NCBI GenBank assembly: GCA_964427275.1
Contig: CAYRSR010000001.1
Coordinates: 20,394 to 84,393 of the forward strand
DNA: 64,000 nucleotides
Source: an uncultured Candidatus Saccharibacteria bacterium
GTDB lineage: Bacteria; Patescibacteriota; Minisyncoccia; UBA6257; CAYRSR01
Reading direction: 5' to 3'
In this document: positions 19,268 through 50,887 of the stretch, piece by piece
How the letters are laid out: the number at the start of each line of letters is the position of its first letter
Position numbering within the stretch: position 1 is the first letter of the stretch
Position numbers and translations under genes: made by a program
Notes under the pieces: generated by a model
What the model saw: only the letters and a program-made list of their open reading frames with translations
Told to the model about the DNA's origin: nothing
Database searches by the model: none

Positions 19268-19292
19268 CAGGCTTCAAACGCTTCCTGCTCAA

Positions 19293-27556: not shown

Positions 27557-27600
27557 AACACCAACCACTTAAGTACTTAACTACTCAAGTACTTAAGTAG
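27557..27600. promoter_or_regulatory. 13-bp-stem hairpin / palindromic operator-like site between the Wzz-like gene and the downstream membrane gene
   Basis: AGTACTTAACTAC-tcaagtacttaa-GTAGTTAAGTACT, a perfect inverted repeat. The half-site AAGTACTT recurs at about 26870. Confidence 0.35.
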
Positions 27601-27741
27601 TTAAGTACTCAATCAAAACTCATAAAAACATCACATACAAATAAAAATAAGTAGGCGATAAAATAAGAATAAGAAAGTAGATGATTTACAATATTACCAA
27701 CACTTAGAGAAGATTATAAGTAATTACTTGGTAGAAATTTT

Positions 27742-28539
27742 TTAGGCTGATGCTTCTCTACTCTTTTTCCACCATTCTTTAATAAAAGCAGCAAATACTC
27801 CAATAAGTAACCCTAAAATTCCAGATATAGTTAGATTCTGAGCAACTTTTGGCCGAATTGGTCGGTCCAAAACTTGGGCAGATTTTATTACTTTAGTTGA
27901 TTCAATTTTGGTTAAAGCATTCTTCAATTCATTAATTTTCGATTTAGTCTCGCTGATTTCCTGTTTTTTAACTTCAAGTAAATTCAGTAAGGCATACCTT
28001 TCCGAGCCAGTTAACTTTTGAATGTCCTGTTCTAAGATTTTCCTTTCTTGCTCTAAAGAATTAACTTTTTGCTCCAGATTTCTAATATTATCATTTAAGA
28101 TATTTTGTTTAGCCGAAACTTTGAGCTGGTGTTGCTTTAAAATAACCTGATTTAAGTTATTCAAAGCTTTCCGAATCAACTGCTTATTAGTTGATTCAAT
28201 TTTAACTTCTATAAAACTGGTCTCACCTAAGACAGCTGACGATATTCTAATTAAAGGTTTTTCTTTTCTCCCAACTACTAAATCCGAATAAACTCCTTGA
28301 TTAATTTTTTCCACTAGTTCAGCCGGAGATTCAATTAATTCTGATACAACCTGACCAGTTTTGGGAACCAAAGTTCCTATCTGCCCAATTTCTAAAATTG
28401 CGGTTCCCTGATAAACTTTAGGAGCAACTAAATTTAAAATAATAGCTGTAACTATGATTATTCCAAAGATAGCTAAAATCAGCCACCTATGTTTAATAAT
28501 TACTTCTAGATAATCCACTAAGTTAACTTCTTCTTCCAT
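27742..28539 (-). CDS. Wzz-like polysaccharide chain-length determinant / PCP-family protein (no kinase domain)
   Basis: N-terminal TM (WLILAIFGIIIVTAIIL). APKVYQGTAILEIG Wzz motif. Periplasmic coiled-coil. C-terminal TM. The ATG at 28539 with an AAGGA SD is preferred over the TTG at 28629. Confidence 0.6.
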   Translation of the reverse strand: MEEEVNLVDYLEVIIKHRWLILAIFGIIIVTAIILNLVAPKVYQGTAILEIGQIGTLVPKTGQVVSELIESPAELVEKINQGVYSDLVVGRKEKPLIRISSAVLGETSFIEVKIESTNKQLIRKALNNLNQVILKQHQLKVSAKQNILNDNIRNLEQKVNSLEQERKILEQDIQKLTGSERYALLNLLEVKKQEISETKSKINELKNALTKIESTKVIKSAQVLDRPIRPKVAQNLTISGILGLLIGVFAAFIKEWWKKSREASA

Positions 28540-28585
28540 ATATTTTTTACTGTCCTTAGTATAGTAGCCTGTTTTGTCTATTTTG

Positions 28586-29857
28586 TCAAAATAAATATCT
28601 AATAGTTTTAAGAATAATTCCCAAATCAAAGATAAAAGAGCGATGTTTTAAATAATAAAGTTCATATTTCAGTTTTTCTTTGGCTTCATCAACAGAAGCT
28701 CCATACTTGTACTTGATCTGTGCCCAGCCGGTTAAACCGGGCTTTACAAGATGGCGGATGTCATAAAAAGGAATTTCTCTTTTTAATCTTTCTACAAATT
28801 CCGGCCTCTCCGGCCTTGGTCCAACAAAAGAAATATCTCCTTTTAAAATGTTAAAAAACTGGGGAAATTCATCCAAATGAGTGGAGCGGAGAAACTTTCC
28901 AAAAGAAGTTATTCGTGAATCATTCTTAACTGCCCACTGTGGCCCATTTATTTCAGCACTTTTTATCATGGTTCTAAATTTATATAAGGTAAAAATTTTA
29001 CCATTCTTACCTACTCTTTTTTGTTTGTAAAAAATAGGGCCAGGAGAAGTAATTTTTATACCCAGGGCAACAAAAGGAAAAAGAACTCCAGTAACTATTA
29101 AGCCAATTATAGAAAAAACAATATCAAACAATCTCTTAAAAAACTGGTAGGTTTTTCCTTTATTTTTAAAGTTTTCAAAAAACCAGGTCTCATCAATATA
29201 ATCCAAGGCCACCCTTTGAAGCAAACTCTCGTAAAAATCTTTCAAACTTATGTAATTTAAATCCAAAGGAAAATTAGAAAATATCTCTTTTATCCTTTCT
29301 TTGTCTTCTTTGTCAAAAGCCAGAATAACTAAATCCGGCCTTTCTTCGTACTTATTCAAAACTTTGTACTCACTTCTAGTTAAAACTTCAGGAAGAACTT
29401 CCTTTAGTAACAGATGACTTCCCAAAAAAAGAATTTTTTGTTTAAAACCAAAAAATTTTAATAAAAAAGAAATTAAAAGACGCCAGATGTAAAGAAAAAT
29501 TGCTAAAAAGACGACATCCATTAAAAGTATGGTTTTGGGAGAAATAATTATTTTGGGTTGAACATAAAAATAAACACTTCCTACTAAAAAAGCTAAAAAC
29601 AGAAAAATAATTAGATGAGAAAAAAATTCAGATAAATTCTTTAAAGAAGGAATTTCATAAAAATCTAAGAGAAAAAGAATAAAAAGCCAGATTAGATGGA
29701 TAAAAGAAAAATGAAAAAGGAAAATCTGCGTTCTTGGCCCGGGCAAAAAAGAAAAATCGTTATACCTTATAGCCAAAGCTAAAAGAATAGCAAAGTACAT
29801 CAAGAGAAAATCGCCCAAACATAAAACAAACTTTAGAAAATTTATTTTAGACTTCAT
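28586..29857 (-). CDS. initiating polyprenyl-phosphate sugar-phosphate transferase (bacterial sugar transferase, WbaP/PssY-like)
   Basis: C-terminal PF02397 core (KRLFDIVFS...PGPIFYKQKRVGKNGKIFTLYKFRTM...LDEFPQFFNILKGDISFVGPRP) with N-terminal TM helices. Confidence 0.85.
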   Translation of the reverse strand: MKSKINFLKFVLCLGDFLLMYFAILLALAIRYNDFSFLPGPRTQIFLFHFSFIHLIWLFILFLLDFYEIPSLKNLSEFFSHLIIFLFLAFLVGSVYFYVQPKIIISPKTILLMDVVFLAIFLYIWRLLISFLLKFFGFKQKILFLGSHLLLKEVLPEVLTRSEYKVLNKYEERPDLVILAFDKEDKERIKEIFSNFPLDLNYISLKDFYESLLQRVALDYIDETWFFENFKNKGKTYQFFKRLFDIVFSIIGLIVTGVLFPFVALGIKITSPGPIFYKQKRVGKNGKIFTLYKFRTMIKSAEINGPQWAVKNDSRITSFGKFLRSTHLDEFPQFFNILKGDISFVGPRPERPEFVERLKREIPFYDIRHLVKPGLTGWAQIKYKYGASVDEAKEKLKYELYYLKHRSFIFDLGIILKTIRYLF

Positions 29858-29946
29858 CAAAGACTTTTTATTAACTAGATTTTAAATTCTTGCGTTTTAA
29901 AATACAATAGCTGAAATGCTAGCAGTAGATATAATCACTTTCAATG

Positions 29947-30993
29947 TTATCTTGCAAGGGGTATATCTTCAATCTTTTTCTTTTTATGTTTTTCTAAAAT
30001 AATAAAATCCCATATACCTTTTAAATAGCCAAGTCCATAGCTAAAATGTAAGGTTGAAAAGACAGAAGGAAGAACAAAAAAGAATTTAATTCCTTTTTTG
30101 AGAGAAATTTTTAAAGAAAACACCAGATTAACAATTATATAAGAGCTCAACATAAAAACAAAAAGCCATAAAAGTGGTTGGTAAATTATTGAAAGCGCAA
30201 GCGAAATAACCAAACTTCCAACAAATATCCCTGGAACTAGTTGTCTTATAGTATAAACATTTCCTACTTTTTTAACTGTTAAAGGTTTAAAATACCCATA
30301 TTGAAAGTAGGTTCTCCAGAGTTTAAGTAAGGAATCCCTGGCATAATAATAAGAAACAATTTCTGGGACCAGAAGAATTTTTCCTCCGTACTTTTTTAAT
30401 CTAGTATTAAATTCAGCATCCTGTCCTCGCAATAAATCTTCATCAAACAATCCAATTTTTTTAAAAACTTCCCTTTTATAACAACCAAATGGAACCGTAT
30501 CCACAAATCTTGGTTTTTTTGAACCTATCCTAAAATAAACATTTCCTACACCAAAGGGATGAGAAAGTGCTAACGCAATGGATTGAGAAAGTAAGTTTTC
30601 CTTTGCAGGAAGAGTTATTATAGTTCCTCCGACACAGTCAACACGATGTTTTTGTAAATTCGAAACATTCTCCTGGATAAAATTTTTACCTACCTTTGAA
30701 TGACTGCTTAAAATCAATATATAATCCCCTTTTGCCTTTTTTATTCCTATGTTCATGCCAGCAGGAGTTATCCTCTTTGGGTTATCTAAAATTCTTATAA
30801 ATGAATATTTCTGAATATATTTTTTAACAACCTCTTTTGTCTTATCGGTGCTTCTTCCATCTACTACCAGTACCTCAATTCTATCCTTTGGATAATTCTG
30901 AACAATAATAGAATCAAGACAGTCTCCAATGAACTTTTCTTCATTTCGACAAGGAATAATTATAGAAACCAGTGGTAAATTTTCATTTTCCAT
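29947..30993 (-). CDS. family 2 glycosyltransferase with C-terminal TM segments
   Basis: N-terminal GT-A fold motifs (SIIIPCRNEE...DGRSTD). 348 aa. Confidence 0.8.
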   Translation of the reverse strand: MENENLPLVSIIIPCRNEEKFIGDCLDSIIVQNYPKDRIEVLVVDGRSTDKTKEVVKKYIQKYSFIRILDNPKRITPAGMNIGIKKAKGDYILILSSHSKVGKNFIQENVSNLQKHRVDCVGGTIITLPAKENLLSQSIALALSHPFGVGNVYFRIGSKKPRFVDTVPFGCYKREVFKKIGLFDEDLLRGQDAEFNTRLKKYGGKILLVPEIVSYYYARDSLLKLWRTYFQYGYFKPLTVKKVGNVYTIRQLVPGIFVGSLVISLALSIIYQPLLWLFVFMLSSYIIVNLVFSLKISLKKGIKFFFVLPSVFSTLHFSYGLGYLKGIWDFIILEKHKKKKIEDIPLAR

Positions 30994-32071
30994 AGTTCTT
31001 TAGAACTTCTATGATTCTTTCACTTGCTTTTCCGCCACCATAAAAGTCAATCCATTTTTTATTGGAAGTATCTCTATTAAAAGCTTTTATGGTCTCTTTT
31101 ACTATGTTTTCTTTTTTATTGCCAACAACCTTATTCCATCCTATTTCTACCAGTTCAACCCATTCTGTTTCATTCCTTGGAATGATACAGGGTGTTCTAA
31201 AAAAATATCCTTCCTTCTGTACACCTCCAGAATCAGTAACTATTACCTTTGCACTACTTTCAAGAACAATCATCTCAAAATAAGAAACTGGTTCTGTGAT
31301 AATTAAGTTTTTAGAAGTTCTATCTATTAAGTTATAATTTTTTAATGCTTTTCTTGTTCTTGGATGAACAGGAAAGAAAACTTTTATATCTGAATTAGCA
31401 ATATCATTCAAAGCATTCCAGATATTTTCTAAATTCTCTTTAATATCTGTATTTTCCGCTCGATGTATTGTAACTAGAATAAATTCTTTAGGTCTGAGAT
31501 TATATTTTGAAAGTATCTTTTTTTTACTAACTTTCCTTTTAACTTCTAAAGCTAGATCGAACATTACATCCCCTACTTTGTAAACACCTTTTGTTATCCC
31601 TTCTTTCTTTAAATTTTCTACTGTCTTATCTGTTGGTGCAAAAAGAATATCCGAACAGTGATCTGTCAAAACCCTGTTTACTTCCTCAGGCATATTCTTG
31701 TTATAACTTCTCAGGCCTGCTTCTATATGAGCAAGAGGAATATGAAGCTTGACAGAAGCCAAAGCTCCTGCCAGAGTTGTATTCGTATCTCCATAAACTA
31801 AAACAAGATCAGGTTTCTCTTTGAATAATACTTTTTCTACTTCTATAAGCATTTTGCCTGTCTGTTTGCCATGAGTTCCGGAACCTACTCCAAGATTATA
31901 ATCGGGTCTTGGTAAGCTTAATTCCTTGAAAAATATGTCAGACATGTTGAAGTCATAATGCTGTCCTGTATGAACAAGAATTTCATTAATACCATTTTTT
32001 CTCAGTTTCCTTGAAATTAAAGCTGCCTTTATAAATTGAGGACGAGCACCAATAATAGATATAACTTTCAT
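30983..32071 (-). CDS. wecB: UDP-N-acetylglucosamine 2-epimerase (non-hydrolysing), WecB/WbpI family
   Basis: IGARPQFIKAA...GQHYD...LVYGDTNTTLAGALA...HIEAGLRSYN signature. Confidence 0.85.
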   Translation of the reverse strand: MKVISIIGARPQFIKAALISRKLRKNGINEILVHTGQHYDFNMSDIFFKELSLPRPDYNLGVGSGTHGKQTGKMLIEVEKVLFKEKPDLVLVYGDTNTTLAGALASVKLHIPLAHIEAGLRSYNKNMPEEVNRVLTDHCSDILFAPTDKTVENLKKEGITKGVYKVGDVMFDLALEVKRKVSKKKILSKYNLRPKEFILVTIHRAENTDIKENLENIWNALNDIANSDIKVFFPVHPRTRKALKNYNLIDRTSKNLIITEPVSYFEMIVLESSAKVIVTDSGGVQKEGYFFRTPCIIPRNETEWVELVEIGWNKVVGNKKENIVKETIKAFNRDTSNKKWIDFYGGGKASERIIEVLKNYGK

Positions 32072-32116
32072 AGTTTTTTATGGATACTTAAAATTTTTTT
32101 CTCTTTTATGACTTGA

Positions 32117-32863
32117 CTACTTCTTGATTTTCATTACAAACTGCTGATATTTTTCAATAACCTCCTGAGGTTTCCCATAAGCCTTAACTTCACCTCTATG
32201 CAACCACAATACCTGTGTAGAAAACTGTTTGATAGCTTCCATATTGTGACTTACCAAAACTACTGTGTGATCCTTACCTAATAACTCTCGAATCTTTGCC
32301 TGGCTTTTTTGACGAAAACTCTGGTCTCCAACACCTAATACTTCGTCAATCAGCAATATATCACATTCCAGATGAGCAGCTATAGCAAATCCAAGTCTAG
32401 CTACCATACCTGATGAATAAGTTTTAACAGGAGTATTAATAAAATCCCCAATTTCGGCAAACTCTACTATCCTTTTATAATACTTCCTAATTTGAGGTAA
32501 GGAAAATCCCATTAGCATTCCAACCAAAAATATGTTCTCACTGCCAGTAAGCTCAGGTTGAAAACCTGCGGTTAAGGAAAGTAATGTTGAAACTCGGCCA
32601 GCTACTTCTATCTTACCTTCATCTGGAACAAATATACCCCCGATCACCCTGAGAAGAGTACTTTTTCCAGCTCCATTTAATCCTATAACTCCCAATGTTT
32701 CACCATTTCTTACAGCAAAGCTTACATTCCGCAAGGCCCAAAATTCTTTAAAAGATTGACGCTTTAAACCCTGCACTACTAACTTTTTTAATGTAGGACG
32801 CTTTTCCAGATGCAGTCTGAACTTTATGCCAATATTATTTGCTTTTATCATTACTTTGCTCAT
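32117..32863 (-). CDS. wzt: polysaccharide ABC exporter ATP-binding protein (Wzt/TagH-like, no C-terminal carbohydrate-binding domain)
   Basis: Walker A GLNGAGKST, ABC signature and Walker B. 248 aa. 4-bp overlap with the upstream permease. Confidence 0.8.
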   Translation of the reverse strand: MSKVMIKANNIGIKFRLHLEKRPTLKKLVVQGLKRQSFKEFWALRNVSFAVRNGETLGVIGLNGAGKSTLLRVIGGIFVPDEGKIEVAGRVSTLLSLTAGFQPELTGSENIFLVGMLMGFSLPQIRKYYKRIVEFAEIGDFINTPVKTYSSGMVARLGFAIAAHLECDILLIDEVLGVGDQSFRQKSQAKIRELLGKDHTVVLVSHNMEAIKQFSTQVLWLHRGEVKAYGKPQEVIEKYQQFVMKIKK

Positions 32864-33648
32864 CTTATATCTTTTGCTAGATAAGATTCCTTACGAGCAA
32901 AAAGAAAAAGACCAAAGCACAAGAATAAAAATCCTGCTCCTAAAGTTATCCAGATATAAAAAGTTGGTGGAATCCCTCGCACCAGTAAATTCTTGTAGGC
33001 ATTAAACAAAGCAGAAAATGGATTCAACATATATATTGGTTGTAGATGTTTTGGAATTCTATCAGCTACCGAATATAATCCCGGTGAAAGATAAAACCAC
33101 ATTCGCAAGCCAAACTGTAATATGTTTTGAAGGTCTCGAAAATATACCCCAAAAATTGCCAATATTAGAGAAAGACCTAGCGTAAAAACAAACTGAATCA
33201 AAACTACCACCGGTAGCCATACAAGATTTATAGTAAAGCGAGCATGAAACATAAAAAGCATGGGTAAGAGAGCAATCAAACTGAATAAATACTTCATAAA
33301 CCCAGTAACTACCTGTTGAGTAGGAAGTATTATTTTTGGAAAAGCTACGGCCTGAATAAGCTTTGCCCTGCTAGTAAGTGAGACAACGGATTGCTGTAAA
33401 GAATAAGTGAACCAGCGCCAGGCAAGTAGAGCAGAAAATAAAAGCACTGGAAACTGAGGACCTCCTCTTTTAAAGATATACTGAACCAGAATTACATATA
33501 CTACCATCATCATCAAAGGATCTAAAATACTCCACAAAAAACCAAAAAACTTGTTTTTGTAGGCAACTTTAAGATCAGACTTTACCAGAAACCAAAGTAG
33601 ATATCTCCAATTCCAAAGTTGTTTTACCGGTTGAAATAAGTTTTTCAT
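32860..33648 (-). CDS. wzm: ABC-2 type polysaccharide exporter permease (Wzm-like)
   Basis: 262 aa with 6 TM helices and the ABC-2 family pattern. Overlaps the stop of the GT4 gene by 4 bp. Confidence 0.8.
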   Translation of the reverse strand: MKNLFQPVKQLWNWRYLLWFLVKSDLKVAYKNKFFGFLWSILDPLMMMVVYVILVQYIFKRGGPQFPVLLFSALLAWRWFTYSLQQSVVSLTSRAKLIQAVAFPKIILPTQQVVTGFMKYLFSLIALLPMLFMFHARFTINLVWLPVVVLIQFVFTLGLSLILAIFGVYFRDLQNILQFGLRMWFYLSPGLYSVADRIPKHLQPIYMLNPFSALFNAYKNLLVRGIPPTFYIWITLGAGFLFLCFGLFLFARKESYLAKDIR

Positions 33649-35231: not shown

Positions 35232-35348
35232 TTTTTACAATTAGTAAAACTTTATTTCAGGTTAATTTTCTTGTCAAGTTTTAAAAAATTTCAAAAATCG
35301 CTTGCTTAGAAATTTCTATTAGCCAAGAAATATTAGACTTATCTCTCT

Positions 35349-36614: not shown

Positions 36615-36630
36615 GCTCAACTTTTGTTTG

Positions 36631-38148
36631 TCACCTGCTACTAGCTTCTATCTTATGAAGTAACGCATTCCAATTGTCCGTTAGTAAGAAGGCTCTATGT
36701 TCGTATAACTCTTTCAAAACATACTGGTAATCATAAAATACCAGCTTCTTACCGGAATTCCAGTTTTCGATTGTTTGCATCCATTTGTGCATCCAGAATT
36801 TTAAAGTTTGATACACTTCCTCTGGAAGATCAGCAGAAGCAAGTAGACATACCAAAGCAACCACATGATAAGTATGATAATAATTCTTACCAATACCAAA
36901 CTTGGAAAAGTTAGTTGGATAACCACAGAATAGTTTGTCACGCACTGAGGTAATATGAACTACTGAATAATTACTGAGTTTTTTTGATTGAAGCTTAACA
37001 GTTTCTCCTCCAGCAGGAGTTGTTTGATAGGGATCATATTCACCAACATTAAACTCAACAGAAAAAGGTTTTCCTTCTCCTATTAAATAAGTATCATACC
37101 TTTGACTACAGCTTATCCATATATCAGTCCACCCGGAAGTAGTTTTAATAATTCTATTGTCATAAGATGAACTATCTTCTTTGATAAGTTCAAGCTTAAA
37201 TACTAAGTCATCCAGCTCAGGTAAGCGAGATTTATAAAATACATAAAGATTATCCGGTGGTCCATCAGGATGATAAATTCTAACTCGATAAGGACAAAGA
37301 TCTGAATACAAACTCAAACCAGTTGTCGAATCGTGGAAGGAAGGTAAAACTTGAGCAAGGGTAAAGATATTTTTCCTGAATAGTTCTAATGCTTCTGAAT
37401 CATTATAAAAAGTAGCATATTGATGAAGATAAAGAAGTGCATGAAGCCATCCATTAAGAATAACTTCAGGGGCAGATCGAAAAAGGGGTAGTTCAAGCAG
37501 AAAGCTATCTTTTAAATTTACTCCACCTTGATAATATGGGAAAGCTAATCCAAGATAGGTTTCTCGAGCTAATTCTTTTAAATTTAAGTTGCAACGCCTA
37601 TCTAGATCCACAATGGCTCCAAGAATCTGAGCCTGACCAATTGCACTTGGAGAAATATCAGGTCCAAGGAAACGATTAAGATTAAAATTATCTGGATAGT
37701 ACCATAAAAGACCACCATTAGGTAATCTATATGCTGTTTTCTTTGCTGCTGAAAGATACTTTTTTATTGGTTCATCACAACTAAGACGAGATAAAAATCC
37801 TCCATAAGCCATCGGATGAAAAACATATCTTTCTTTAACATCCTGCCAGTACTTAAAAAAAGGAACATCATTTACCAAAACAATGTTATCTTTAGAAATA
37901 ACCTGTCTATTCTTTTCTTCAGGAGTATAAACACTTGAAATTAACTGAAGTAAGTCCTCTGGAGGTTGAAGATAATTTTTGATGTGTCGTGCTTTGTGAA
38001 AAGCTACTATTAAAGAATTAGGTTCTTGTTTCGATTCTGTAGGCAAAAATGCATCATAAGAAAATAGTAATAGAATTAACAAAAGACAGCTAACCATAAC
38101 TGCTGTATAGATGACTTTACTAATTAGTTTTTTTAATGGAGTTTTCAT
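36631..38148 (-). CDS. secreted protein with D-glucuronyl C5-epimerase-like C-terminal region (tentative)
   Basis: N-terminal signal/TM. The GPDISPSAIGQAQILGAI segment resembles the S-x-MAQG-x-A-x-S core of PF06662. Weak. Confidence 0.35.
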   Translation of the reverse strand: MKTPLKKLISKVIYTAVMVSCLLLILLLFSYDAFLPTESKQEPNSLIVAFHKARHIKNYLQPPEDLLQLISSVYTPEEKNRQVISKDNIVLVNDVPFFKYWQDVKERYVFHPMAYGGFLSRLSCDEPIKKYLSAAKKTAYRLPNGGLLWYYPDNFNLNRFLGPDISPSAIGQAQILGAIVDLDRRCNLNLKELARETYLGLAFPYYQGGVNLKDSFLLELPLFRSAPEVILNGWLHALLYLHQYATFYNDSEALELFRKNIFTLAQVLPSFHDSTTGLSLYSDLCPYRVRIYHPDGPPDNLYVFYKSRLPELDDLVFKLELIKEDSSSYDNRIIKTTSGWTDIWISCSQRYDTYLIGEGKPFSVEFNVGEYDPYQTTPAGGETVKLQSKKLSNYSVVHITSVRDKLFCGYPTNFSKFGIGKNYYHTYHVVALVCLLASADLPEEVYQTLKFWMHKWMQTIENWNSGKKLVFYDYQYVLKELYEHRAFLLTDNWNALLHKIEASSR

Positions 38149-38163
38149 ATCAACTTAAATTCT

Positions 38164-39309
38164 TTATTGTAAACTCTTTATTTCTTCTACCACTTTTTTA
38201 TAAATCTTTTCTTTATAAGCTGGCTCTATTGGCAAGCTTAAAACTTGCTCTGTAACCTCTATGGTATTTTTTAGTTTTCCTAAGCATTTACATCTTTTTT
38301 TAAAAACTTTCATCTTACAAAGAGGTACTGGGTAGTAAACCATTGTTTGTATGCCTTTTCTTTTAAGTTTTTCTTGAATCTTATCTCTTTTTTTATTAAG
38401 TAGTTTCACGGTATATTGATGATAAACATGATAAGCTCTTCTTTGAACCTTGGGTATTTTAATCCAACTTATTCCTCTTAGGTACCTATTGTAGAATCTG
38501 GCTATTTTTCTTCTTTTTTTATTAAACTTATCTATGTATCTTATTTTTGCAAGCAAAACAGCTGCCTGCAAAGTATCAAGACGAGCATTATAACCTATAT
38601 GTTCTGCATCATATTTATCTTTACCCCCATGCTTTCTTAACATTCTTACAATTTCCGCCAGTTTATTATCATTTGTAGTAATCATTCCTCCATCGCCAAA
38701 TCCGCCAAGATTTTTAGAAGGGAAAAAACTGAAACATCCTGCATCGCCAAACGAACCTGTTTGTCTTCCATTCCATTTAGCACCAAAACTTTGAGCACAA
38801 TCTTCTACTATAAACAAATTATTTTTTCTAGCTATCTTTATTATTTCATCCATATTGGATGCCTGACCATAAAGATGAACAGGAAGTATTCCTACCACGT
38901 TACTATCATATTTTTCTAAGGCCAAATTTATCTGCACTGGGTCTATGTTAAAAGTCTCAGGGTTTATGTCTACAAAAAGTGGAGTTGCTCCAGATCTTAA
39001 AATAGCATCTCCGGTAGCAGTAAAGGTAAATGGTGTAGTAATTATTAAATCTTTTTTATTCCAGAACTCAGAATCTCTTTTTTTGATAGCTATAGCTCTT
39101 AAAGCAAGAACTAAAGCATCTGTTCCTGAAGATACACCAACAGCATGTTTTACTTTTATATAGTTAGCAACTTTTTGTTCTAATTCTTTTACTTCAGGGC
39201 CTAATATCCAGCGTTGATGTCTAAGACATTTCTTAATAGCAGAATTAATCTCTTTTTTAATTAACTTATACTGAGCCACCAGATCAAGAAGTTTTATTTC
39301 AATTGCCAT
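38164..39309 (-). CDS. DegT/DnrJ/EryC1/StrS-family sugar aminotransferase (WbpE-like)
   Basis: PLP-dependent fold with family-typical N-terminus (LDLVAQYK...GPEV.ELEQK...[11 protein letters not shown]). Confidence 0.85.
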
Positions 39310-39878
39310 ACTTTGTTTCTCTTTTTTCTGTACTTTCTTTTACAAATTTTACAAATAGCCTTTCCTTTCTTAAATTCTAATTTATTTCCACATTCACAAA
39401 CCCAGCCAATAATTCTTGCAGGTACTCCAGCTACAATTGCATAATCTGGAACATCTTTTGTAACCACAGCTCCAGCTCCAATCATTGCCCATTTACCAAT
39501 TTCAATTCCACAAACAATTGTCGCATTTGCTCCAATCGTAGCTCCTTCTTTCACCAATGTAGGAAACCATTTTCCATATTGAGGATATTTTGATTTAGGA
39601 TATTTAGCTCTTGGGTTTTTATCATTAGTAAAAACTGCTGAAGGTCCTACAAAAACGTAATCTTCTAAGGTTACTAAATCCCAAACATCAACATTAGACT
39701 CAAGTTTTACCCCTTTCCCCAGTTTTGCTTTAGAACTTACCAGACAATTATGCCCGATAACACAATTTTCACCAATTTCTGCACCTTTTAAAATCTGACA
39801 ATTTTGCCAAATTTTCGTCCCTTTTCCAATTTTTGCTCCCTTTTGAATCTCAGCAGTTTTATGTGCCCAATAATTCAT
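39294..39878 (-). CDS. hexapeptide-repeat sugar N-acetyltransferase (WbpD/WlbB-like)
   Basis: Left-handed beta-helix repeats and a C-terminal GVPARIIG... region as in UDP-GlcNAc3NA N-acetyltransferases. Confidence 0.8.
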
Positions 39879-40846
39879 AAATTAATAAGTTTCCCATTTT
39901 TACTCAATGACCTCTGGCAACCTTCTAACACCTTTAATACTTCTAGTGCTTCTTTTCCATCTGTTCTTGGATCTTTTCTTTCCTTGATACATTTCAAAAA
40001 ATGCTTTGCTTCCTCCATTAATGGTTCTTTTTTTGAAATTTTAATCACTTTCCCTTTAGCCTTTATTACTTCCGGATTTTTGTTTTTCCTCCACCTTATC
40101 TTATGGAAATAAATTATAAGCTCATTTTTCACACCATCAAAAACTGCCATTGCCTTTGAGCCAATTATCGACAATTTTTGCTCTTTAAAGGGATTTAGCC
40201 AGGAAACAAAAATGTGAGCTGCTTTTCCTTCTTGAAACTCTAGAGAAGTTAGAGTAATATCGGGAATGTCTTTTTGAAGATATGTCTTTCCAATTGCCCT
40301 AACTTTCTTGGGCATTCCTAAAATATCAAGAATGACTGAAATATCATGAGGAGCAAATGACCATAAAACATTTTCCTCTCTTCTTAACCTACCAAAATTA
40401 AGTCGGTTTGACCAAATATAGCAAATTTTTCCTAATTCCCCTTTCTTTATTATTTCCTTTAACTTTAAAACCGCTGGATGATACAAAAGCAAGTGTCCTA
40501 CCATTAAAATCTTTTTTTTCTTTTCAGTCAATTTTAGTAGTTCTTTACCTTCTTTGACTTTCAGAGCCAGTGGCTTCTCTACAAAAACATCTTTTCCGGA
40601 ATTTAAAGCTAATTTAGCTAACTTATAATGAGTAGCCGAGGGAGTTGAAATCACAACTGCATCAATCTCTCTCTTTTTTAAGACATCTAAAAAATTTGTT
40701 GTTGTTTTAAGCCAAGGAAAGTCTCTTTTTCTCTTCCTTAGAACTTTTTTATCAGAATCACAAATAATCTCTAAAACTCCAAGTTGACTAAAAACCCTAA
40801 CCAAATTCTTTCCCCAGTATCCTGTCCCAATTATTGCTACTTTCAT
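39875..40846 (-). CDS. Gfo/Idh/MocA-family oxidoreductase (WbpB-like)
   Basis: N-terminal Rossmann [14 protein letters not shown]. 323 aa. Confidence 0.8.
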
Positions 40847-40852
40847 AAGTCT

Positions 40853-42169
40853 TTACCACCAAGACACATTTTTGTATTCTCTCGATTTAATAGCATTTCT
40901 GGTATCAACTACCAATTTTGCATTTTTAGCAATTTCATTGTAATCAAATCCTGAGTGATCTGTAAGAATTAAGACCAAATCATACCTTTTTAAAACTTCA
41001 GGAGAATACTTAATTGATTCTAAAATTATTGGTTTCTTTAATCTATGATTTTTAACCTCAAATTTTTTAATGTAAGGGTCAAAATAATCAAGCCTGGCTC
41101 TCTTTCGCAAGAGATCCCATATTACTCGGTGAGCTGCTGATTCTCTTGAATCGGCAATATCTCTCTTATAAGCTACTCCCCAAACCAAAATTTTAGAATC
41201 CTTAACTGGCTTTTTGTTTCTATTTAGAAGAGTAATTACTCTAGTAACTACAAAATGTGGCATTTGTTCATTAATCTGTCCAGCTAATTCAATAAATCGG
41301 GGCCAGAAATTAAATTCTCTAGCACGAAAAGAAAGATAGAATGGATCAACTCCAATACAATGACCGCCACAACGAGGAGAAGGATAAAAAGGCATAAAGC
41401 CAAAAGGCTTTGTTTTTGCCGCCTCAATTACTTCCCAGATATCGATTCCCATTTTGCCACAAAGTAAAGCCAGTTCATTTATCATTGAAATGTTTACCAG
41501 TCGAAAAGTGTTTTCTAAAATTTTGGTCATTTCGGCAGTTTCAGGAAAAGTTAGTGGCATTATTTGAGCTTCAATAAAGCTCTGATAAAATTGAGTAGCA
41601 AGTTTAGTACATTTTCTGGTTATTCCTCCTACTACTCTGGGAATACTTTTTAACTGATATTTTTTGTTTCCTGGATCAAGTCTTTCTGGTGAATAAGCTA
41701 AAAAGAAATCTCTACCAACCTTTAAACCAGTCTTTTGAAGGATTGGTAAAACTACTTCCCTGGTTGTTCCAGGATAAGTGCTACTTTCTAAAATAATAAG
41801 TTGGTGTCTATGTAAATATTTTGCAATTTCTTTTGTAGCTGATTTTATATAGGAAATATCAGGAATTTTGTTTTTATCTAAAGGAGTTGGAACGCAGATT
41901 AAAACAACATCCGATTTTTTTAAACACAGATAATCATTAAAGACTTCTAATCTTTTAGAAGCTATTGCTTTCTTTAAATCTTCTGAAGTCACATCAAAAA
42001 TGTAAGACCTTCCTATATTAATCTGCCTAACTCTTTGATTATTTTTATCTATGCCAAAAACTTTAAAGCCTACCCTGGTTAGTTGAACAACAGTAGGCAA
42101 TCCTACATAACCTAAACCGATAACTGTAACTTTTGCTTTTCTATTTCTAATTAACCTATCCAAGTTCAT
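40853..42169 (-). CDS. UDP-N-acetyl-D-glucosamine/mannosamine 6-dehydrogenase (WbpA/WecC-like nucleotide-sugar dehydrogenase)
   Basis: VTVIGLGYVGLP Rossmann motif and the three-domain UDPGDH architecture. The ATG at 42169 is preferred over the TTG at 42178. Confidence 0.85.
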   Translation of the reverse strand: MNLDRLIRNRKAKVTVIGLGYVGLPTVVQLTRVGFKVFGIDKNNQRVRQINIGRSYIFDVTSEDLKKAIASKRLEVFNDYLCLKKSDVVLICVPTPLDKNKIPDISYIKSATKEIAKYLHRHQLIILESSTYPGTTREVVLPILQKTGLKVGRDFFLAYSPERLDPGNKKYQLKSIPRVVGGITRKCTKLATQFYQSFIEAQIMPLTFPETAEMTKILENTFRLVNISMINELALLCGKMGIDIWEVIEAAKTKPFGFMPFYPSPRCGGHCIGVDPFYLSFRAREFNFWPRFIELAGQINEQMPHFVVTRVITLLNRNKKPVKDSKILVWGVAYKRDIADSRESAAHRVIWDLLRKRARLDYFDPYIKKFEVKNHRLKKPIILESIKYSPEVLKRYDLVLILTDHSGFDYNEIAKNAKLVVDTRNAIKSREYKNVSWW

Positions 42170-42299
42170 AAATTTCAATTTTTCTTTTGATGTTTATGTG
42201 CTTTTCTTATCATCACTTTTAAATATTTTTGATAAATAAACCTACTTGGTGTTCTAAAGGCTAATTTTCCTTTTTTAGCTCTTTTTGACGAGTATTTTT

Positions 42300-43367
42300 T
42301 CATTGTCTGAGTTCTTCAAACCATTGGTGAACCATTTTGAGACCTTCTTTGAGATCAACTTTTGATTGCCAGCCAAGTAATTTTTTAGCCAGAGTTATAT
42401 CAGCTCGAGTATGATAAACATCACCATCTCTTGGTGGTAAATATTGTTTTTTGCCACCAACTAAATCGGCTAGGTAATTTATTGAGTAGGATTTTTCACT
42501 GCTCATGTTAATTACTTCTCCCCCTTTTAGCTTCTCACTTTCCATTGCTTTAATAGTTGCATCAATTGCATCGTCGACATAACAAAATCCTCTGGTCTGC
42601 TTACCATCACCATAAATAGTTAATGGCTTACCTTCAATTTTTTGTTTTAAAAATTTTCCAATTACCAAACTGTATTCGGAATCAAAGTCAATTCTGGGCC
42701 CATATATGTTGAAGTATCGTAAAGAAATAATTGGTGTCCTATAAAGATTGGTAAATAGCTTAGCAAATTGTTCCCCAACTAATTTCTGTAAGCCGTAAGG
42801 ACTAACAGGCTCAGGGGTCATATCTTCTTTGAAAGGTAGTTTTTCTTGATTACCATAAACAGCCGAAGAAGAAGCAAAAACAACTCTCTTTACTCTACTC
42901 TCAGCTGAAGCCTTAAATACACTGATTGTTCCAAGAATATTAACCTTAGAAGTCCTGACAGGATCCTCAACTGAAAGAGGCACTCTTGGAATAGCTGCTA
43001 AATGAAAAACATAATCAACTTTTTGAAAAAGTGGTTTAATCTTATCAAAATTACAAATATCAAGTTCATAAAATTCAGCTTTAGGATTTAAATTCTCCCT
43101 TTTACCAGTGGATAGATCATCAATTACAATTACTTTATAGTTTTCTTTAATTAATCTATCTACTAAATGACTTCCAATAAAACCAGCACCACCAGTAACT
43201 AAGATTGTTTGATGTTTGAGGTTAGATGTTCGATGTTGGAGATTGGAAGTTGGAAGTTGGAGGTTGGAGGTTGGAGGTTGGAAGTTGGAGGTTTGAGGTT
43301 GGAAGTTTGACGTTTGATGTTGGATATTAGATGTTAGATGTTGGAGGTTTGATGTTTGATGTTTCAT
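42300..43367 (-). CDS. NAD-dependent epimerase/dehydratase (UDP-sugar 4-epimerase / UXS-like) with heptamer-repeat-encoded N-terminal tail
   Basis: TGGAGFIGSHL Rossmann motif and YxxxK. The first 54 codons, (H/Q)QTSN(L/F)Q repeats, are encoded by a (AACWTCY)n heptamer tract. Confidence 0.8.
   Translation of the reverse strand: MKHQTSNLQHLTSNIQHQTSNFQPQTSNFQPPTSNLQLPTSNLQHRTSNLKHQTILVTGGAGFIGSHLVDRLIKENYKVIVIDDLSTGKRENLNPKAEFYELDICNFDKIKPLFQKVDYVFHLAAIPRVPLSVEDPVRTSKVNILGTISVFKASAESRVKRVVFASSSAVYGNQEKLPFKEDMTPEPVSPYGLQKLVGEQFAKLFTNLYRTPIISLRYFNIYGPRIDFDSEYSLVIGKFLKQKIEGKPLTIYGDGKQTRGFCYVDDAIDATIKAMESEKLKGGEVINMSSEKSYSINYLADLVGGKKQYLPPRDGDVYHTRADITLAKKLLGWQSKVDLKEGLKMVHQWFEELRQ
43205..43364. 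repeat. tandem heptanucleotide repeat tract, about 23 units of GADGTTD (plus strand), within the 5' coding end of the epimerase gene
   Basis: Read directly: gatgttt gaggtta gatgttc gatgttg gagattg gaagttg gaagttg gaggttg gaggttg gaggttg gaagttg gaggttt gaggttg gaagttt gacgttt gatgttg gatatta gatgtta gatgttg gaggttt gatgttt gatgttt. Confidence 0.85.
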
Positions 43368-43753
43368 TGTTTTTTTAGATATCTTTTTAAACTTAATAAC
43401 TTGAAAAATAATTCATCGATTCTGGTGATGATTTGATTAAAGGTTATTTTAGATATGTATTTTAAATTCTCGGCAATAATACAACAAGCCTTTACCTCTA
43501 TCAAAGAACCTAATGCAATATCCACAAACCTTGCAAATTCTTTCTTGTTTCGCGCACTTCCTTCTGTAATATTCAATATCACTGAAATTGCCGCTCGTTT
43601 CAATTGAGCACCCAAAATGAATGTTTCTTCCTTAGGAAATTTTAAACTAAGATTGTAAATTTCCTTAAGTAATTCATTTGCTAACTTATAAACTTCTAAA
43701 TTTCCAAAATTATACTTCTGATACATAATTCCAACATCCAACATATCCAACAT
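43364..43753 (-). CDS. four-helix-bundle protein (23S rRNA intervening-sequence protein family, TIGR02436-like)
   Basis: 129 aa. YKLANELLKEIYNLSLKFPKEE...QLKRAAISVILNITEGSAR...EFARFVDIALGSLIEV is typical of the family. Confidence 0.7.
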   Translation of the reverse strand: MLDMLDVGIMYQKYNFGNLEVYKLANELLKEIYNLSLKFPKEETFILGAQLKRAAISVILNITEGSARNKKEFARFVDIALGSLIEVKACCIIAENLKYISKITFNQIITRIDELFFKLLSLKRYLKKQ

Positions 43754-43770
43754 CTAACATCTAACATCAT
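43729..43770. repeat. heptamer tract (CCAACAT/ATCTAAC x about 6), inverted orientation relative to 43205-43364
   Basis: ccaacat ccaacat atccaac atctaac atctaac atc spans the start codon of the four-helix-bundle gene and the stop of the upstream YqeY gene. Confidence 0.7.
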
Positions 43771-44276
43771 TTAGCTTTTTTCAGGAGTAAGTCTTTGACT
43801 ATTTTTGCGATTAATTGAGGTTCAGCTTTTCCTTTGAATTTAGACATCATCTCCTTCATTACTTTTCCCATATCAGCTATAGATTTTGCTTTGAGTTTTT
43901 CTATAACTTGCTGGGCTGACTTTTCAATTTCTGTAGCAGAAGCTTGCTTGGGTAAATACTTTTTCAGAATCTCTATCTCGGCCTGTTCTTTTTTAGCTAG
44001 TTCTTCTCTCCCTCCTTTTCGATACAGTTTAATTGAATCAGTTCGCTTTTTTATTTCCGAATAAATCAAGTCAATTATTTCCTGATCAGTTAAACTACTT
44101 TGCTTAGTTAGTTCTGATTCAGTTATTGATTTACTTTGTTTAAGAATTCTTACTCTTTTTTCCTTTTCACGATTTAAAATAGATGTTTTTAAAAGCCTCA
44201 GCACCGAAAGAACTTCGGTTTGTTTATTTTTTAAAGCTAATTTAAAATCCCGTTCAATTTCTTGCTTAAGAGACAT
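43767..44276 (-). CDS. GatB/YqeY domain protein
   Basis: MSLKQEIERDFKLALKNKQTEVLSVLRLLKTSI start is typical of YqeY. The ATG at 44276 is preferred over the GTG at 44306. Confidence 0.7.
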   Translation of the reverse strand: MSLKQEIERDFKLALKNKQTEVLSVLRLLKTSILNREKEKRVRILKQSKSITESELTKQSSLTDQEIIDLIYSEIKKRTDSIKLYRKGGREELAKKEQAEIEILKKYLPKQASATEIEKSAQQVIEKLKAKSIADMGKVMKEMMSKFKGKAEPQLIAKIVKDLLLKKAK

Positions 44277-44281
44277 AATAA

Positions 44282-45277
44282 CTACTTTGTTTTTTCTAAA
44301 TACCACTTTAAAGTTTTTTCTAATCCTTCATCCAGACTGTACTTTGGTTCAAATTCAAGCTCTCTTTTAGCTTTAGAGTAATCTAGAGCAACTCGGCCAA
44401 CCTCACCTCTTTTTTCTGGAACATATATTTTGGCTACATCTATCCTGGTTAACTTTTTAATCTTATCAAATAAGCTATTTATGCTAGTCTCTACACCAGT
44501 CCCAATATTAAATATTCCAGTTTTATCTTTCTTTAAAGCTAAAATTGCAGCATCTATCGCATCGTCTATGTAAATAAAATCTCTAGTTTGAGTTCCATCT
44601 CCAATAATAGTAGGCTGCTCACCAGCTAGCATCTTTTTAAAAAATACCGAAATTACTCCAGCTTCAGCAGAAATTCCCTGTCTTGGTCCATAGACATTTG
44701 AGTAACGCAAGGAAATACTCGGTACCTGATATACTTCGCGATAATAGTCCAAGTACTTTTCTACTGCTAGCTTAGCCACTACACATGGAGCAATAGGTCT
44801 TTCTGGAGAAGTTTCAGGAGTAGGAATGACATCTGCTTCTCCATAAATTGCTCCACCAGTAGAGAAAAATATAAACTTAGAATCAGTAATTTCCACCGGC
44901 AAGAAATGTAAAAAATTTTTTAACACATTTAAAGAGCCCATAATATTTATCCGGGCATCCCAGTCAGGATTATCTAGCGACTTTCTTATATCCACCTGAG
45001 CAGCTAGATGGAACACTGTCTGAGGTCTTTCTTTTTTAAATATTTTGGAAATTTTAGGTGAGCAAATATCTACTTTATAAAAACTTGCTTTTTTGTTCAC
45101 CAGCTCTTTTCTTCCGGTAGAGAGATTATCAATAACTACTACCTTAAAGCCAAGTTCTACTAATCTATCCACCAGATGAGAACCAATAAATCCAGCTCCA
45201 CCAGTAACTAAGATTGTTTGAGGTTTGAGGTTAGACGTTGGATGTTGGATATTAGAGGTTTGATGTTTTTCCAGCAT
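44282..45277 (-). CDS. NAD-dependent epimerase/dehydratase (paralog) with short heptamer-repeat-encoded N-terminus
   Basis: MLEKHQTSNIQHPTSNLKPQT followed by ILVTGGAGFIGSHLVDRL. The ATG at 45277 is preferred over the ORF-track TTG at 45331. Confidence 0.8.
   Translation of the reverse strand: MLEKHQTSNIQHPTSNLKPQTILVTGGAGFIGSHLVDRLVELGFKVVVIDNLSTGRKELVNKKASFYKVDICSPKISKIFKKERPQTVFHLAAQVDIRKSLDNPDWDARINIMGSLNVLKNFLHFLPVEITDSKFIFFSTGGAIYGEADVIPTPETSPERPIAPCVVAKLAVEKYLDYYREVYQVPSISLRYSNVYGPRQGISAEAGVISVFFKKMLAGEQPTIIGDGTQTRDFIYIDDAIDAAILALKKDKTGIFNIGTGVETSINSLFDKIKKLTRIDVAKIYVPEKRGEVGRVALDYSKAKRELEFEPKYSLDEGLEKTLKWYLEKTK
45215..45268. repeat. heptamer tract (about 8 units: gtttgag gtttgag gttagac gttggat gttggat attagag gtttgat) in the 5' coding end of the second epimerase gene
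   Basis: Same unit family and the same adjoining 22-nt sequence (CCACCAGTAACTAAGATTGTTT) as at 43183-43206. Confidence 0.8.
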
Positions 45278-45409
45278 TGAGATGATTATAACATATCTTA
45301 AAAGTAGTTTGCACCACTTGACAAATTGCAAAAATGTTAGTATAATTAGGTCAGCTTAAGGGAATTAACAAAAAAATAAGGTTGGTAGAATTGAAAAAGG
45401 AGGTTCGAA

Positions 45410-50657: not shown

Positions 50658-50887
50658 AATAGCAAATTCAAAATTTAAAAATTAAATTTTAAAATGATAA
50701 TTTAAAATTCAAAATTAGCAAATTTTAAAATTACACCAACCATAATAAAATTTAAAATTTAAATATTAAAATGCGATTAATCAATTTTCAACTATCAATT
50801 TCTAATTTTCATTGAATTTTCAATTTTCAACTTCCAACTTCTAACTTCTAACTTTTATTTGTAAACTGTCATTTTTCATTTTGATTT
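50658..50887. repeat. dispersed intergenic repeat element, copy D
   Basis: Contains GCGATTAATCAATTTTCAACTATCAATTTCTAATTTTCATTGAATTTTCAATTTTCAACTTCCAACTTCTAACTTCTAACTTTTATTTGTAAAC, matching copies A and B. Confidence 0.75.

Follow-up and report, generated by a model that had tools for sequence, protein, structure and literature searches.

Surface polymers built on 2,3-diacetamido-2,3-dideoxy-hexuronic acids have been described in both diderm and monoderm bacteria. The enzymes for the activated sugar are those of the Wbp/Wlb pathway, found in Pseudomonas aeruginosa (WbpA/B/E/D/I), Bordetella (WlbA-D) and Thermus thermophilus HB27, and the UDP-GlcNAc3NAcA 2-epimerase activity of the T. thermophilus enzyme has been demonstrated biochemically (PMC10622841). 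In the diderms Bordetella bronchiseptica and B. parapertussis, the wbm O-antigen of the lipopolysaccharide (LPS) is an L-GalNAc3NAcA homopolymer whose assembly depends on an ATP-binding cassette (ABC) transporter and involves sugar remodelling by SDR enzymes, a terminal cap, and modification of the diacetamido-uronic O-chain after export by WbmE (PMC2615507). A monoderm example is the Utr polymer of Streptomyces griseus, [4-ManNAc3NAcA-b1,3-GalNAc-a1]n, which is teichuronic-acid-like, chemically characterised, and made with WbpABDEI-like enzymes and a UDP-hexose 4-epimerase (PMC13274773); a few glycosyltransferases (GTs) build its short repeat, and its non-reducing end is capped. Here we describe a 17.5-kb glycan locus in a bacterium of the candidate phyla radiation (CPR), located on a 64-kb stretch of contig CAYRSR010000001.1 (assembly GCA_964427275.1) which we analysed as a whole and refer to as the window.

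Surveys of CPR genomes already take the wall to be monoderm and to carry accessory polysaccharides (PMC11809585; PMC6146748). A rhamnose wall polysaccharide has been proposed (PMC11809585), and 'LPS-like' genes have been noted (PMC6146748). Our literature search for ABC-dependent glycan loci in CPR gave general remarks of this kind only, and no description of the gene cassette reported below, or of an ABC-dependent diacetamido-uronic glycan in CPR, was found. The locus is a real and correctly delineated glycan operon in a CPR genome, and its predicted pathway is ABC-transporter-dependent, polyprenyl-phosphate-primed glycan synthesis. With moderate confidence, we read it as the operon for an ABC-exported, acidic surface glycan of a monoderm-type CPR bacterium, a teichuronic-acid-like polymer which would be built on 2,3-diacetamido-2,3-dideoxy-hexuronic acid.

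Layout of the operon and its nucleotide-sugar enzymes

The operon consists of 17 consecutive minus-strand open reading frames (ORFs), arranged head-to-tail from 27742 to 45331 (Table 1). Its first gene starts at an ATG at 45277, the end point given in a first-pass annotation of this DNA, and the mechanical ORF extends to 45331. Most of the ORFs overlap or are less than 20 nt apart, with four larger gaps of 45-121 nt. Transcription passes from SDR2, YqeY, the four-helix-bundle protein and SDR1 to the four genes from 6-dehydrogenase to aminotransferase, then to the 505-aa protein, the methyltransferase fusion and GT4, and finally through the exporter, 2-epimerase, GT2 and priming enzyme to the Wzz-like protein. 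Pfam and NCBIfam scans gave predicted glycan functions to 15 of the 17 and reproduced every gene label of the first-pass annotation, which had placed all genes on the minus strand. As a correction to that annotation, two of the genes embedded in the operon, those for YqeY and the four-helix-bundle '23S rRNA intervening-sequence protein', are non-glycan genes. No convincing plus-strand genes occur in the ORF listing between 27742 and 45331; the ORF at 39804-40112(+) overlaps the WbpB/WbpD-like genes and is spurious. A promoter and terminator scan was uninformative (71 promoter-like sites vs 67.5 expected). In the 228-nt spacer between the operon end and the next gene (Sm_multidrug_ex), there is a tandem palindromic octamer (ACTTAAGT x5.4, 27567-27612), which may be a terminator or a protein-binding site.

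The host is placed in the CPR, as a Parcubacteria-like organism, because of its RecA relatives and a 16S rRNA insertion. All named relatives of the RecA encoded in the window are Parcubacteria/Paceibacteria-type CPR (Colwell-, Harrison-, Wolfe- and Paceibacterota), at no more than 72% identity, and the insertion carries a GIY-YIG ORF. These features bear out the earlier description of the genome as CPR-like. Insertions of this kind are a typical hallmark of CPR rRNA genes. The GC content of the window is uniformly low (~0.33), with no shift across 27.7-45.3 kb. When composition was compared, as the first-pass annotation had proposed, the locus was indistinguishable from the remaining window genes in GC (0.332 vs 0.336), GC at third codon positions (0.238 vs 0.239), relative synonymous codon usage (r = 0.96) and tetranucleotide profile (r = 0.97). 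A recent horizontal island is ruled out, as all four profiles equal those of the flanks, so that the locus either is native to the CPR genome or has been resident there for a long time.

The same five enzyme classes that are encoded together in the Wbp/Wlb systems are encoded together here, and three of them are clear relatives of the pathway enzymes. The 2-epimerase matches the T. thermophilus UDP-GlcNAc3NAcA 2-epimerase (8SXV) at 1e-126 and 426 bits, compared with 145-206 bits against bacterial WecB/MnaA/CapG 2-epimerase structures. The aminotransferase has WbpE (3NYU, 8e-74) among its top PDB matches. For the acetyltransferase, the best PDB match (8e-50) is 3MQG, a 'lipopolysaccharides biosynthesis acetyltransferase' which we take to be Bordetella petrii WlbB. 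The two dehydrogenases differ from the described pathway. The 6-dehydrogenase passes the cut-off of the subfamily model TIGR03026 only, with the archaeal UDP-ManNAc dehydrogenase and WecC models falling below theirs, and in the PDB it matches 4R16 (2e-68) and Cap5O (5e-63), so that it is nearer to archaeal UDP-ManNAc dehydrogenase and Cap5O, in a CPR rather than a diderm host. The GFO/IDH/MocA oxidoreductase is far from WlbA (3Q2K, 3e-11) and nearer to the archaeal UDP-GlcNAc 3-dehydrogenase (NF040723, 178 bits, below cut-off). Its 3-dehydrogenase role is assigned because it lies between the WbpA-like and WbpD-like genes and because this order is conserved in a related cassette (L032).

From this enzyme set, assigned by homology, we conclude that the locus would make UDP-GlcNAc3NAcA and UDP-ManNAc3NAcA. 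The probable route leads from UDP-GlcNAc through the 6-dehydrogenase, 3-dehydrogenase, aminotransferase and N-acetyltransferase to UDP-GlcNAc3NAcA, and through the WbpI-type 2-epimerase to UDP-ManNAc3NAcA. The dehydrogenases lean towards archaeal enzymes, and therefore the order of the reactions may follow the archaeal route.

The two SDR enzymes probably supply a galacto-configured partner sugar (e.g. UDP-GalNAc/Gal) or 4-epimerise a uronic acid. SDR2, for which the gene call on a second contig (L003) agrees at 331 aa, has Thermotoga maritima UDP-Glc 4-epimerase (4ZRM, 5e-87) as its best PDB sequence match. SDR1 matches 4ZRM (3e-66), WbpP (1SB8, 7e-51), WbgU and the UDP-GlcA 4-epimerase 6ZLA, and reaches 175 bits, below cut-off, with the TviC model. 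Both are nearest to 4-epimerases and not to WbmF/G/H, which sets them apart from the Bordetella wbm system, although that system shares with this locus an ABC-dependent 2,3-diacetamido uronic polymer. A parallel in a monoderm is S. griseus Utr, a ManNAc3NAcA surface polymer made with WbpABDEI-like enzymes and a UDP-hexose 4-epimerase. It differs in that the Utr polymer is added to wall teichoic acid by TarS/TarM-like GTs and carries an O-acetyl cap, while the CPR locus has its own priming enzyme, Wzm/Wzt, methyltransferase, GLCE-like ectoenzyme and PCP-like protein. The phrase 'ABC transporter' is absent from the main text of the Utr paper (PMC13274773).

Table 1. Features of the glycan operon in order of transcription, followed by its repeat arrays and by other features of the window.
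Feature	Position	Strand	Support
SDR2, NAD-dependent UDP-hexose 4-epimerase-like, first operon gene	44282..45277	-	PF01370 199 bits
YqeY (GatB/YqeY-domain), not a glycan gene	43767..44306	-	PF09424 133 bits
Four-helix-bundle '23S rRNA intervening-sequence protein'	43364..43753	-	PF05635 103.5 bits, TIGR02436
SDR1, 4-epimerase-like (UDP-GlcNAc / UDP-GlcNAcA / UDP-Glc class)	42300..43367	-	PF01370 220 bits
NDP-N-acetylhexosamine 6-dehydrogenase (WbpA/WecC-like)	40853..42178	-	TIGR03026 424 bits vs cut-off 190
GFO/IDH/MocA oxidoreductase, predicted UDP-sugar 3-dehydrogenase (WbpB/WlbA role)	39875..40846	-	PF01408, PF22725
Hexapeptide N-acetyltransferase (WbpD/WlbB-like)	39294..39878	-	PF00132
DegT-family pyridoxal-phosphate aminotransferase (WbpE-like 3-aminotransferase)	38164..39309	-	PF01041 384 bits
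505-aa single-pass membrane protein, distant D-glucuronyl C5-epimerase relative	36631..38148	-	PF06662 (C5-epim_C) 29.3 bits vs 23.3, E 7.6e-7
GT4-N-terminal-like stub + helical insertion + class I S-adenosylmethionine (SAM) methyltransferase + 4-Cys motif	35349..36620	-	PF08241, PF13649 at residues 193-330
GT4 glycosyltransferase, 528 aa	33645..35231	-	PF00534, PF13439, PF13579
ABC-2 permease (Wzm/TarG family)	32860..33648	-	PF01061
ABC ATPase (Wzt/TarH family), 244-248 aa	32117..32863	-	PF00005
UDP-2,3-diacetamido-2,3-dideoxy-glucuronic acid 2-epimerase (WbpI/WlbD type)	30983..32071	-	TIGR00236 361 bits
GT2 glycosyltransferase, two C-terminal transmembrane segments	29947..30993	-	PF00535 101 bits; transmembrane 249-287
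Large polyprenyl-phosphate phosphoglycosyltransferase (WbaP/WcaJ class)	28586..29860	-	PF02397 (Bac_transf) 230 bits; TIGR03025 336 bits vs 295.6
PCP (Wzz)-like protein, ~265 aa from internal ATG	27742..28539	-	PF02706 28.0 bits vs 25.5
Heptanucleotide array, 7.6 units, encodes SDR2 leader	45216..45268	- orientation	TRF, motif search
Heptanucleotide array, 22.6 units TGTTGGA (+ strand), 21-nt super-period, in frame with SDR1	43206..43363	- orientation	TRF score 169
Type IV pilus block	13942-23154		PilC-like 15552-16760, PilB-like 16907-18625, pilin-like 19293-19901
16S rRNA gene	53463-55277	-	1815 nt vs 1533-position model, ~280 nt longer than bacterial model
GIY-YIG homing-endonuclease-like ORF, 104 aa	54909-55223		within 16S rRNA gene

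Priming, chain extension and export

The priming enzyme is of the phosphoglycosyltransferase (PGT) class and not of the WecA/TagO class; a related cassette (L004) has a PF00953 gene instead. As in large PGTs there are four N-terminal transmembrane (TM) segments, and the TM scan places a fifth hydrophobic segment where the catalytic domain begins. The PGT would prime polyprenyl phosphate at the cytoplasmic face of the membrane. After it, the locus has two complete GT domains only, those of GT2 and GT4. Orthologues of GT2 (55% identical) adjoin the PGT in two further cassettes (L031 and L033), making GT2 a conserved partner of the PGT. GT2 may add the next residue, after which GT4, a candidate chain-extending enzyme, may extend the chain alone or in alternation with GT2. 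The N-domain of GT4 has an aromatic/hydrophobic insertion of ~150 aa containing a 23-aa tandem duplication. At the DNA level, this is a 69-bp tandem repeat (two copies, 92% identical, 34636-34775) which duplicates a 23-aa aromatic/basic segment (FYKGIKKIFYWGFYYPAK...), and the duplicated segment may be a membrane-interface element.

Priming by a PGT, and not by a WecA/TagO-type enzyme, also fits a glycan destined for protein. The S-layer glycan of Geobacillus stearothermophilus is both PGT-primed and Wzm/Wzt-exported. In this case an O-oligosaccharyltransferase encoded elsewhere would transfer the chain after export, with an S-layer protein, a pilin or a large surface adhesin as acceptor. Type IV pilus genes are present in the window, as are several pilin-like proteins and a 1056-aa PKD/LTD surface protein, and one of the related cassettes (L031) is located beside a PMT_2-type GT-C gene. 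The lean of both dehydrogenases to archaeal models points the same way, as diacetamido-uronic sugars occur in archaeal N-glycans. CPR cells have also been reported with S-layers (PMC6146748). However, the pilus genes are 8-12 kb away with unrelated genes between, no S-layer gene was identified, and no Wzy_C-type ligase/PglL, STT3 or PMT was found in the 64-kb window with ~3-6 kb extra on each side, taken from identical metagenome contigs (~73 kb). Transfer to protein is, in our view, an unlikely fate for this glycan. The first-pass annotation had suggested a check for O-antigen or LCP-family ligases elsewhere in the genome, and this same ~73 kb yielded none. Under the surface-glycan reading that we prefer, the polymer would be joined to peptidoglycan or protein by a ligase encoded elsewhere, or would stay lipid-anchored.

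Export is assigned to the permease and ATPase by homology, which likewise supports priming by the PGT and elongation in the cytoplasm. Both align full-length with TarGH of a Firmicute (slightly best), with Aquifex aeolicus Wzm/Wzt and with the mycobacterial galactan exporter. The permease matches TarG (6JBH) at 1e-13 and A. aeolicus Wzm (6M96/6OIH) at ~1e-8. The ATPase matches TarH at 8e-60 and A. aeolicus Wzt at 1e-56, in the latter case aligning to residues 10-238 of 404 only, and differs from Wzt in having no C-terminal carbohydrate-binding domain (CBD). It also falls short of the TagH and galactan-Wzt equivalog cut-offs. This CBD-less Wzm/Wzt-type exporter would move the polymer, linked to its lipid, through the membrane. 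Neither a Wzx flippase nor a Wzy polymerase was found among window ORFs of at least 100 aa, which gave no match to the Polysacc_synt, Wzy_C and O-antigen polymerase families, and none was seen in the extra flanking sequence. The earlier proposal of an ABC-transporter-dependent pathway is supported by all of this: the locus has the exporter, the PGT, GTs and the nucleotide-sugar genes, and Wzx/Wzy were not seen.

The resemblance of the exporter to TarGH raises the question of a standard wall teichoic acid cluster, consisting of TagGH with Tag enzymes. The ATPase and permease do have TagH/TarH and TarG at the top of their NCBIfam and PDB matches, and a 2-epimerase is present, like MnaA in the synthesis of the teichoic acid linkage unit. 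However, the ATPase scores well under the cut-offs of the TagH models (242 vs 538 bits and 226 vs 320 bits), the 2-epimerase is of the WbpI and not the MnaA type, and none of the 17 locus proteins matches TagB/F/TarL, TagD/TarIJ or TagO/TagA; TagB/D/F/O were not seen in the ~73 kb either. With every polyol-phosphate enzyme absent, a standard teichoic acid cluster, which the first-pass annotation had named as one finding that would overturn its interpretation, is refuted for this locus and we give it a negligible probability.

The first-pass annotation had presented the locus against the background of the O-antigen and capsule systems of diderms. A true LPS O-antigen locus of diderm type, whether it was acquired from an outer-membrane envelope or inherited along with one, would account for the sugar, since it is chiefly from the O-antigens of Pseudomonas and Bordetella that ManNAc3NAcA is known, and many members of the 505-aa protein family occur in Proteobacteria. 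A soda-lake survey also reported LPS-like biosynthesis proteins in CPR genomes (PMC6146748), although the same source describes CPR as monoderm. Against an O-antigen, no Lpx, Lpt, Bam or WaaL was found in the ~73 kb, TarGH matches the exporter no less well than Wzm/Wzt do, and the composition of the locus is native. We regard this explanation as very improbable. The diderm framing did not hold in other respects: the closest solved exporters include those of a Firmicute and of mycobacterial galactan, and S. griseus gives a monoderm precedent. With such exporter homologues and a ManNAc3NAcA polymer known in monoderms, the pathway is therefore expected in a monoderm-like CPR cell and not paradoxical. 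Its logic is standard, and the locus gives no reason to infer a diderm envelope in CPR.

The least secure assignment is that of the polysaccharide co-polymerase (PCP)-like protein, and the Wzz label is the weakest of the gene labels. The margin over the PF02706 cut-off is small, and the GNVR domain reaches 23.3 bits, below cut-off. TM segments at 50-68 and 265-283 flank a coiled-coil-rich outward domain, which is the PCP topology. The sole hit of a PDB sequence search is a marginal one, between the N-terminal 50 aa and Wzc (E 0.007). The protein may modulate export or chain length. No kinase domain that would mark a bacterial tyrosine kinase (BY-kinase) partner was found, and the next gene downstream belongs to a small multidrug export family.

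In diderms, ABC-dependent capsules come with PCP-3 proteins, and the PCP-like gene at the operon end, which is seen again in cassette L032, could mean that the product is a released or loosely attached capsule or exopolysaccharide, or a membrane-anchored lipoglycan. The PCP-like protein would then be an export adaptor and the 505-aa protein a trimming or releasing lyase or hydrolase. The lack of a ligase gene in the ~73 kb fits this, although that absence is uninformative because ~73 kb is a minor part of the genome. The weakness of the PCP assignment (28 bits, with neither kinase nor OPX partner) tells against it. Fold searches with the 505-aa protein cut both ways: they return GH8-type and PssZ/BcsZ-like exopolysaccharide hydrolases as well, but its best fold and Pfam matches are epimerases and not lyases. 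A capsule or lipoglycan of this kind seems to us rather improbable.

Two accessory enzymes and a cassette found across phyla

The 505-aa protein passes the C5-epim_C cut-off as a distant relative of D-glucuronyl C5-epimerase (GLCE). Its AlphaFold2 model (predicted local distance difference test, pLDDT, 93.3) shows an alpha-helical toroid-like domain with a beta-rich insert (residues 279-398). The top Foldseek hits are human and zebrafish GLCE (6HZZ/4PXQ), although the match is weak (TM-score ~0.25, E ~1e-3 (8e-4), ~195 aligned columns), and GH8 hydrolases and cellobiose 2-epimerases of the (alpha/alpha)6 class follow close behind. A TM segment at residues 12-30 has four K/R before it and one after. 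Of 49 relatives, 35 show such a segment at the N-terminus, 24 of them with a stub richer in K/R than the far side. The catalytic domain is predicted to face outward, with an N-in signal anchor, because of this N-terminal helix with its K/R-rich cytoplasmic stub. GLCE has the same N-terminal signal-anchor topology.

The invariant residues of the family (Y100, Y151, R159, E219, E228, Y281, Y424, H425 and H428) would suit C5 proton abstraction on a uronate. In our proposal, the anchored enzyme may act outside the cell on uronic C5, either by epimerisation to the L-gulo form or possibly by beta-elimination. Archaeal (Halobacterium) Agl32 shows that a prokaryotic GLCE homologue can be a real glycan epimerase, and an earlier survey found prokaryotic GLCE candidates in GT-rich clusters (PMC3068255). 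The linkage of the 505-aa protein to uronic-acid glycan genes likewise fits C5 epimerisation at the polymer or lipid-linked level, for which AlgG, acting on alginate after export, is a functional analogue. The differences from GLCE are an identity of 15-18%, a beta-rich insert that alters the domain layout, and a substrate that would be a diacetamido-uronic acid. WbmE, which also acts on an exported diacetamido-uronic chain, is a transglutaminase-like deamidase and not GLCE-like.

The 505-aa family is rare. A profile search of 1.84 billion representative sequences gave 72 hits with E<=1e-30 and 359 with E<=1e-3, and PF06662 is annotated on many of the relatives. Members occur in many Alphaproteobacteria and in Vibrio proteolyticus, often beside a GT4 or 2-epimerase gene. 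The closest among the GTDB-representative loci returned (54% identity, 54-1439) is on QMZE01000097.1, a 5-kb contig labelled as an Archaeoglobales archaeon metagenome-assembled genome (MAG), which also has a fragment 89% identical to GT4 (5046-5180). This archaeal-binned contig suggests either cross-domain transfer or mis-binning.

The second accessory enzyme is the methyltransferase fusion. Over its first 54 residues it shares 33% identity with the N-terminal end of the GT4 encoded next to it (E 1e-7), and the 'GT4N' label used by the first-pass annotation is justified by this match. The AlphaFold2 model (pLDDT 93.7) has AtmM and RebM as its closest folds, which we take to be sugar O-methyltransferases, and C301, C304, C368 and C371 are invariant. 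The fusion is predicted to be a glycan O-methyltransferase. It may share the N-terminal membrane or association module of GT4 and O-methylate the chain, perhaps as a non-reducing-end cap.

WbdD-type chain terminators belong to the ABC-dependent O-antigens of Escherichia coli O8/O9a. The likeness is that of a methyltransferase beside a polymerising GT4 and an exporter, and the fusion has an extra module that might anchor it to the polymerase or to the membrane. The fusion differs from WbdD in having neither a kinase domain nor a long coiled-coil ruler, in its AtmM/RebM-like fold, and in its pairing with a Wzt that has no cap-reading CBD.

The Wbp genes, 505-aa protein, methyltransferase fusion, 498-530-aa GT4, Wzm and Wzt form a collinear cassette, followed in some loci by GT2 and PGT. 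Complete or near-complete copies were found in a Bipolaricaulis MAG (L004, 59% GC) and in L031, L032 and L033 (41-53% GC), at 41-67% protein identity; all four have the GT4 orthologue of 498-530 aa. The Bipolaricaulis copy has no methyltransferase fusion, and the recovered stretch of L031 has no 505-aa gene. Looser versions occur in Flavobacteriales (L012), Legionellaceae (L026) and Kiritimatiellae (L006) MAGs. The fusion and the 505-aa family also co-occur on contigs of eight lengths that are common to both hit lists. The cassette is rare and found across phyla, and its two accessory enzymes have no characterised members.

A bolder proposal is that the 505-aa protein founds a rare family, spread over several phyla, whose members would work outside the cytoplasm as polymer-level C5-epimerases for 2,3-diacetamido-uronic acids (ManNAc3NAcA to L-GulNAc3NAcA). 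The protein, the GT4N-methyltransferase and the GT4 paired with the latter would make up an undescribed, horizontally exchanged 'diacetamido-teichuronic acid' module, providing a tunable, alginate-like anionic coat for the attachment of CPR cells to their hosts. We offer this as a tentative and doubtful extension.

Several points weigh against the reading of the locus as an operon for a diacetamido-teichuronic-acid-like surface glycan. The matches of the 3-dehydrogenase and 6-dehydrogenase are at the subfamily level, nearer to archaeal and Cap5O-type enzymes than to WbpB/WbpA. An LCP or other ligase, by which the polymer would be attached, was not seen in the ~73 kb. The CBD that normally reads a methyl cap is missing from the Wzt, so that the usual coupling gives no support to the methyltransferase as a chain terminator. 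With a weak GLCE match and GH8 close behind, the model of the 505-aa protein is compatible with a hydrolase or lyase role too, and its outward orientation is a prediction from the positive-inside rule. Finally, the monoderm state of this organism is assumed from general knowledge of CPR (cited in PMC6146748).

Repeats, passenger genes and genomic neighbourhood

The first-pass annotation noted that the locus ends in repeat-bearing genes that may vary. The repeats are present, but they are at the transcriptional start of the operon. Both SDR genes have heptapeptide leaders, of 50 residues with 7.5 repeats (HQTSNLQ-like) in SDR1 and of 2.5 repeats (HQTSNIQ-type, from the ATG at 45277) in SDR2. 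Each leader starts at an ATG and is fused in frame to the ILVTGGAGFIG Rossmann start, with no alternative start codon between the repeats and this motif in either gene. The underlying motif, CAAC[ACT]TC[CTA]AAC..., has 27 matches in the window against 0 expected. In the orientation opposite to that of the two leader arrays, the heptamer is found in four intergenic regions upstream of minus-strand genes, and directly upstream of the four-helix-bundle gene; the sites in this plus orientation are at 12423-12447, 13846-13870, 43730-43768 and 50828-50852. The motif is dispersed and genome-specific: it occurs once on another contig of the same genome (L030, 5575-5592) and in none of the unrelated loci.

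The expected variation was not seen. Contigs from four samples match the window at 100% identity over every overlap, which also answers the suggested check for strain-level differences, and in contig L003 (31649-48148), the one that spans the repeat tracts, the copy numbers are unchanged. The heptamer units are imperfect (82% matches) with a 21-nt in-frame super-period. Phase variation at these tracts is not supported by the data, which are consensus assemblies with L003 alone covering the tracts.

The four-helix-bundle gene is bracketed by inverted heptamer arms (43323-43345 / 43746-43768, 23 nt, 96% complementary). Such arms resemble the stem flanking rRNA intervening sequences. The Bipolaricaulis cassette also has two genes of this family among its own (L004 929-1381 and 2719-3102), and the gene between the arms is probably a passenger cassette. 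The protein is bAvd-like, and a link to a diversity-generating retroelement was considered and rejected, there being no reverse transcriptase in the window.

Elsewhere in the window, a 1056-aa PKD/LTD/fn3 surface protein adjoins the type IV pilus block. A 393-aa protein by the same block has an N-terminal TM segment, 3-4 repeats of a GYAWSxxCGWIxFNCS motif and no Pfam match. Genes for PlsY, DegV and FakA lie in a row at 56030-59119, an exogenous fatty-acid salvage set that fits a CPR cell not synthesising fatty acids. The flanks also carry RtcB, and D-Ala-D-Ala ligase (Ddl), which counts towards the reading of the host, is just outside the window.

CPR bacteria are obligate episymbionts whose surface chemistry is essentially unknown. 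The locus gives a testable prediction of one CPR envelope polymer, an acidic, ABC-exported diacetamido-uronic glycan, and it defines a compact, conserved cassette common to Bipolaricaulota and other metagenomic lineages. If the 505-aa ectoenzyme is a C5-epimerase, it would provide a candidate family for the formation of L-guluronic-type diacetamido sugars at the polymer level.

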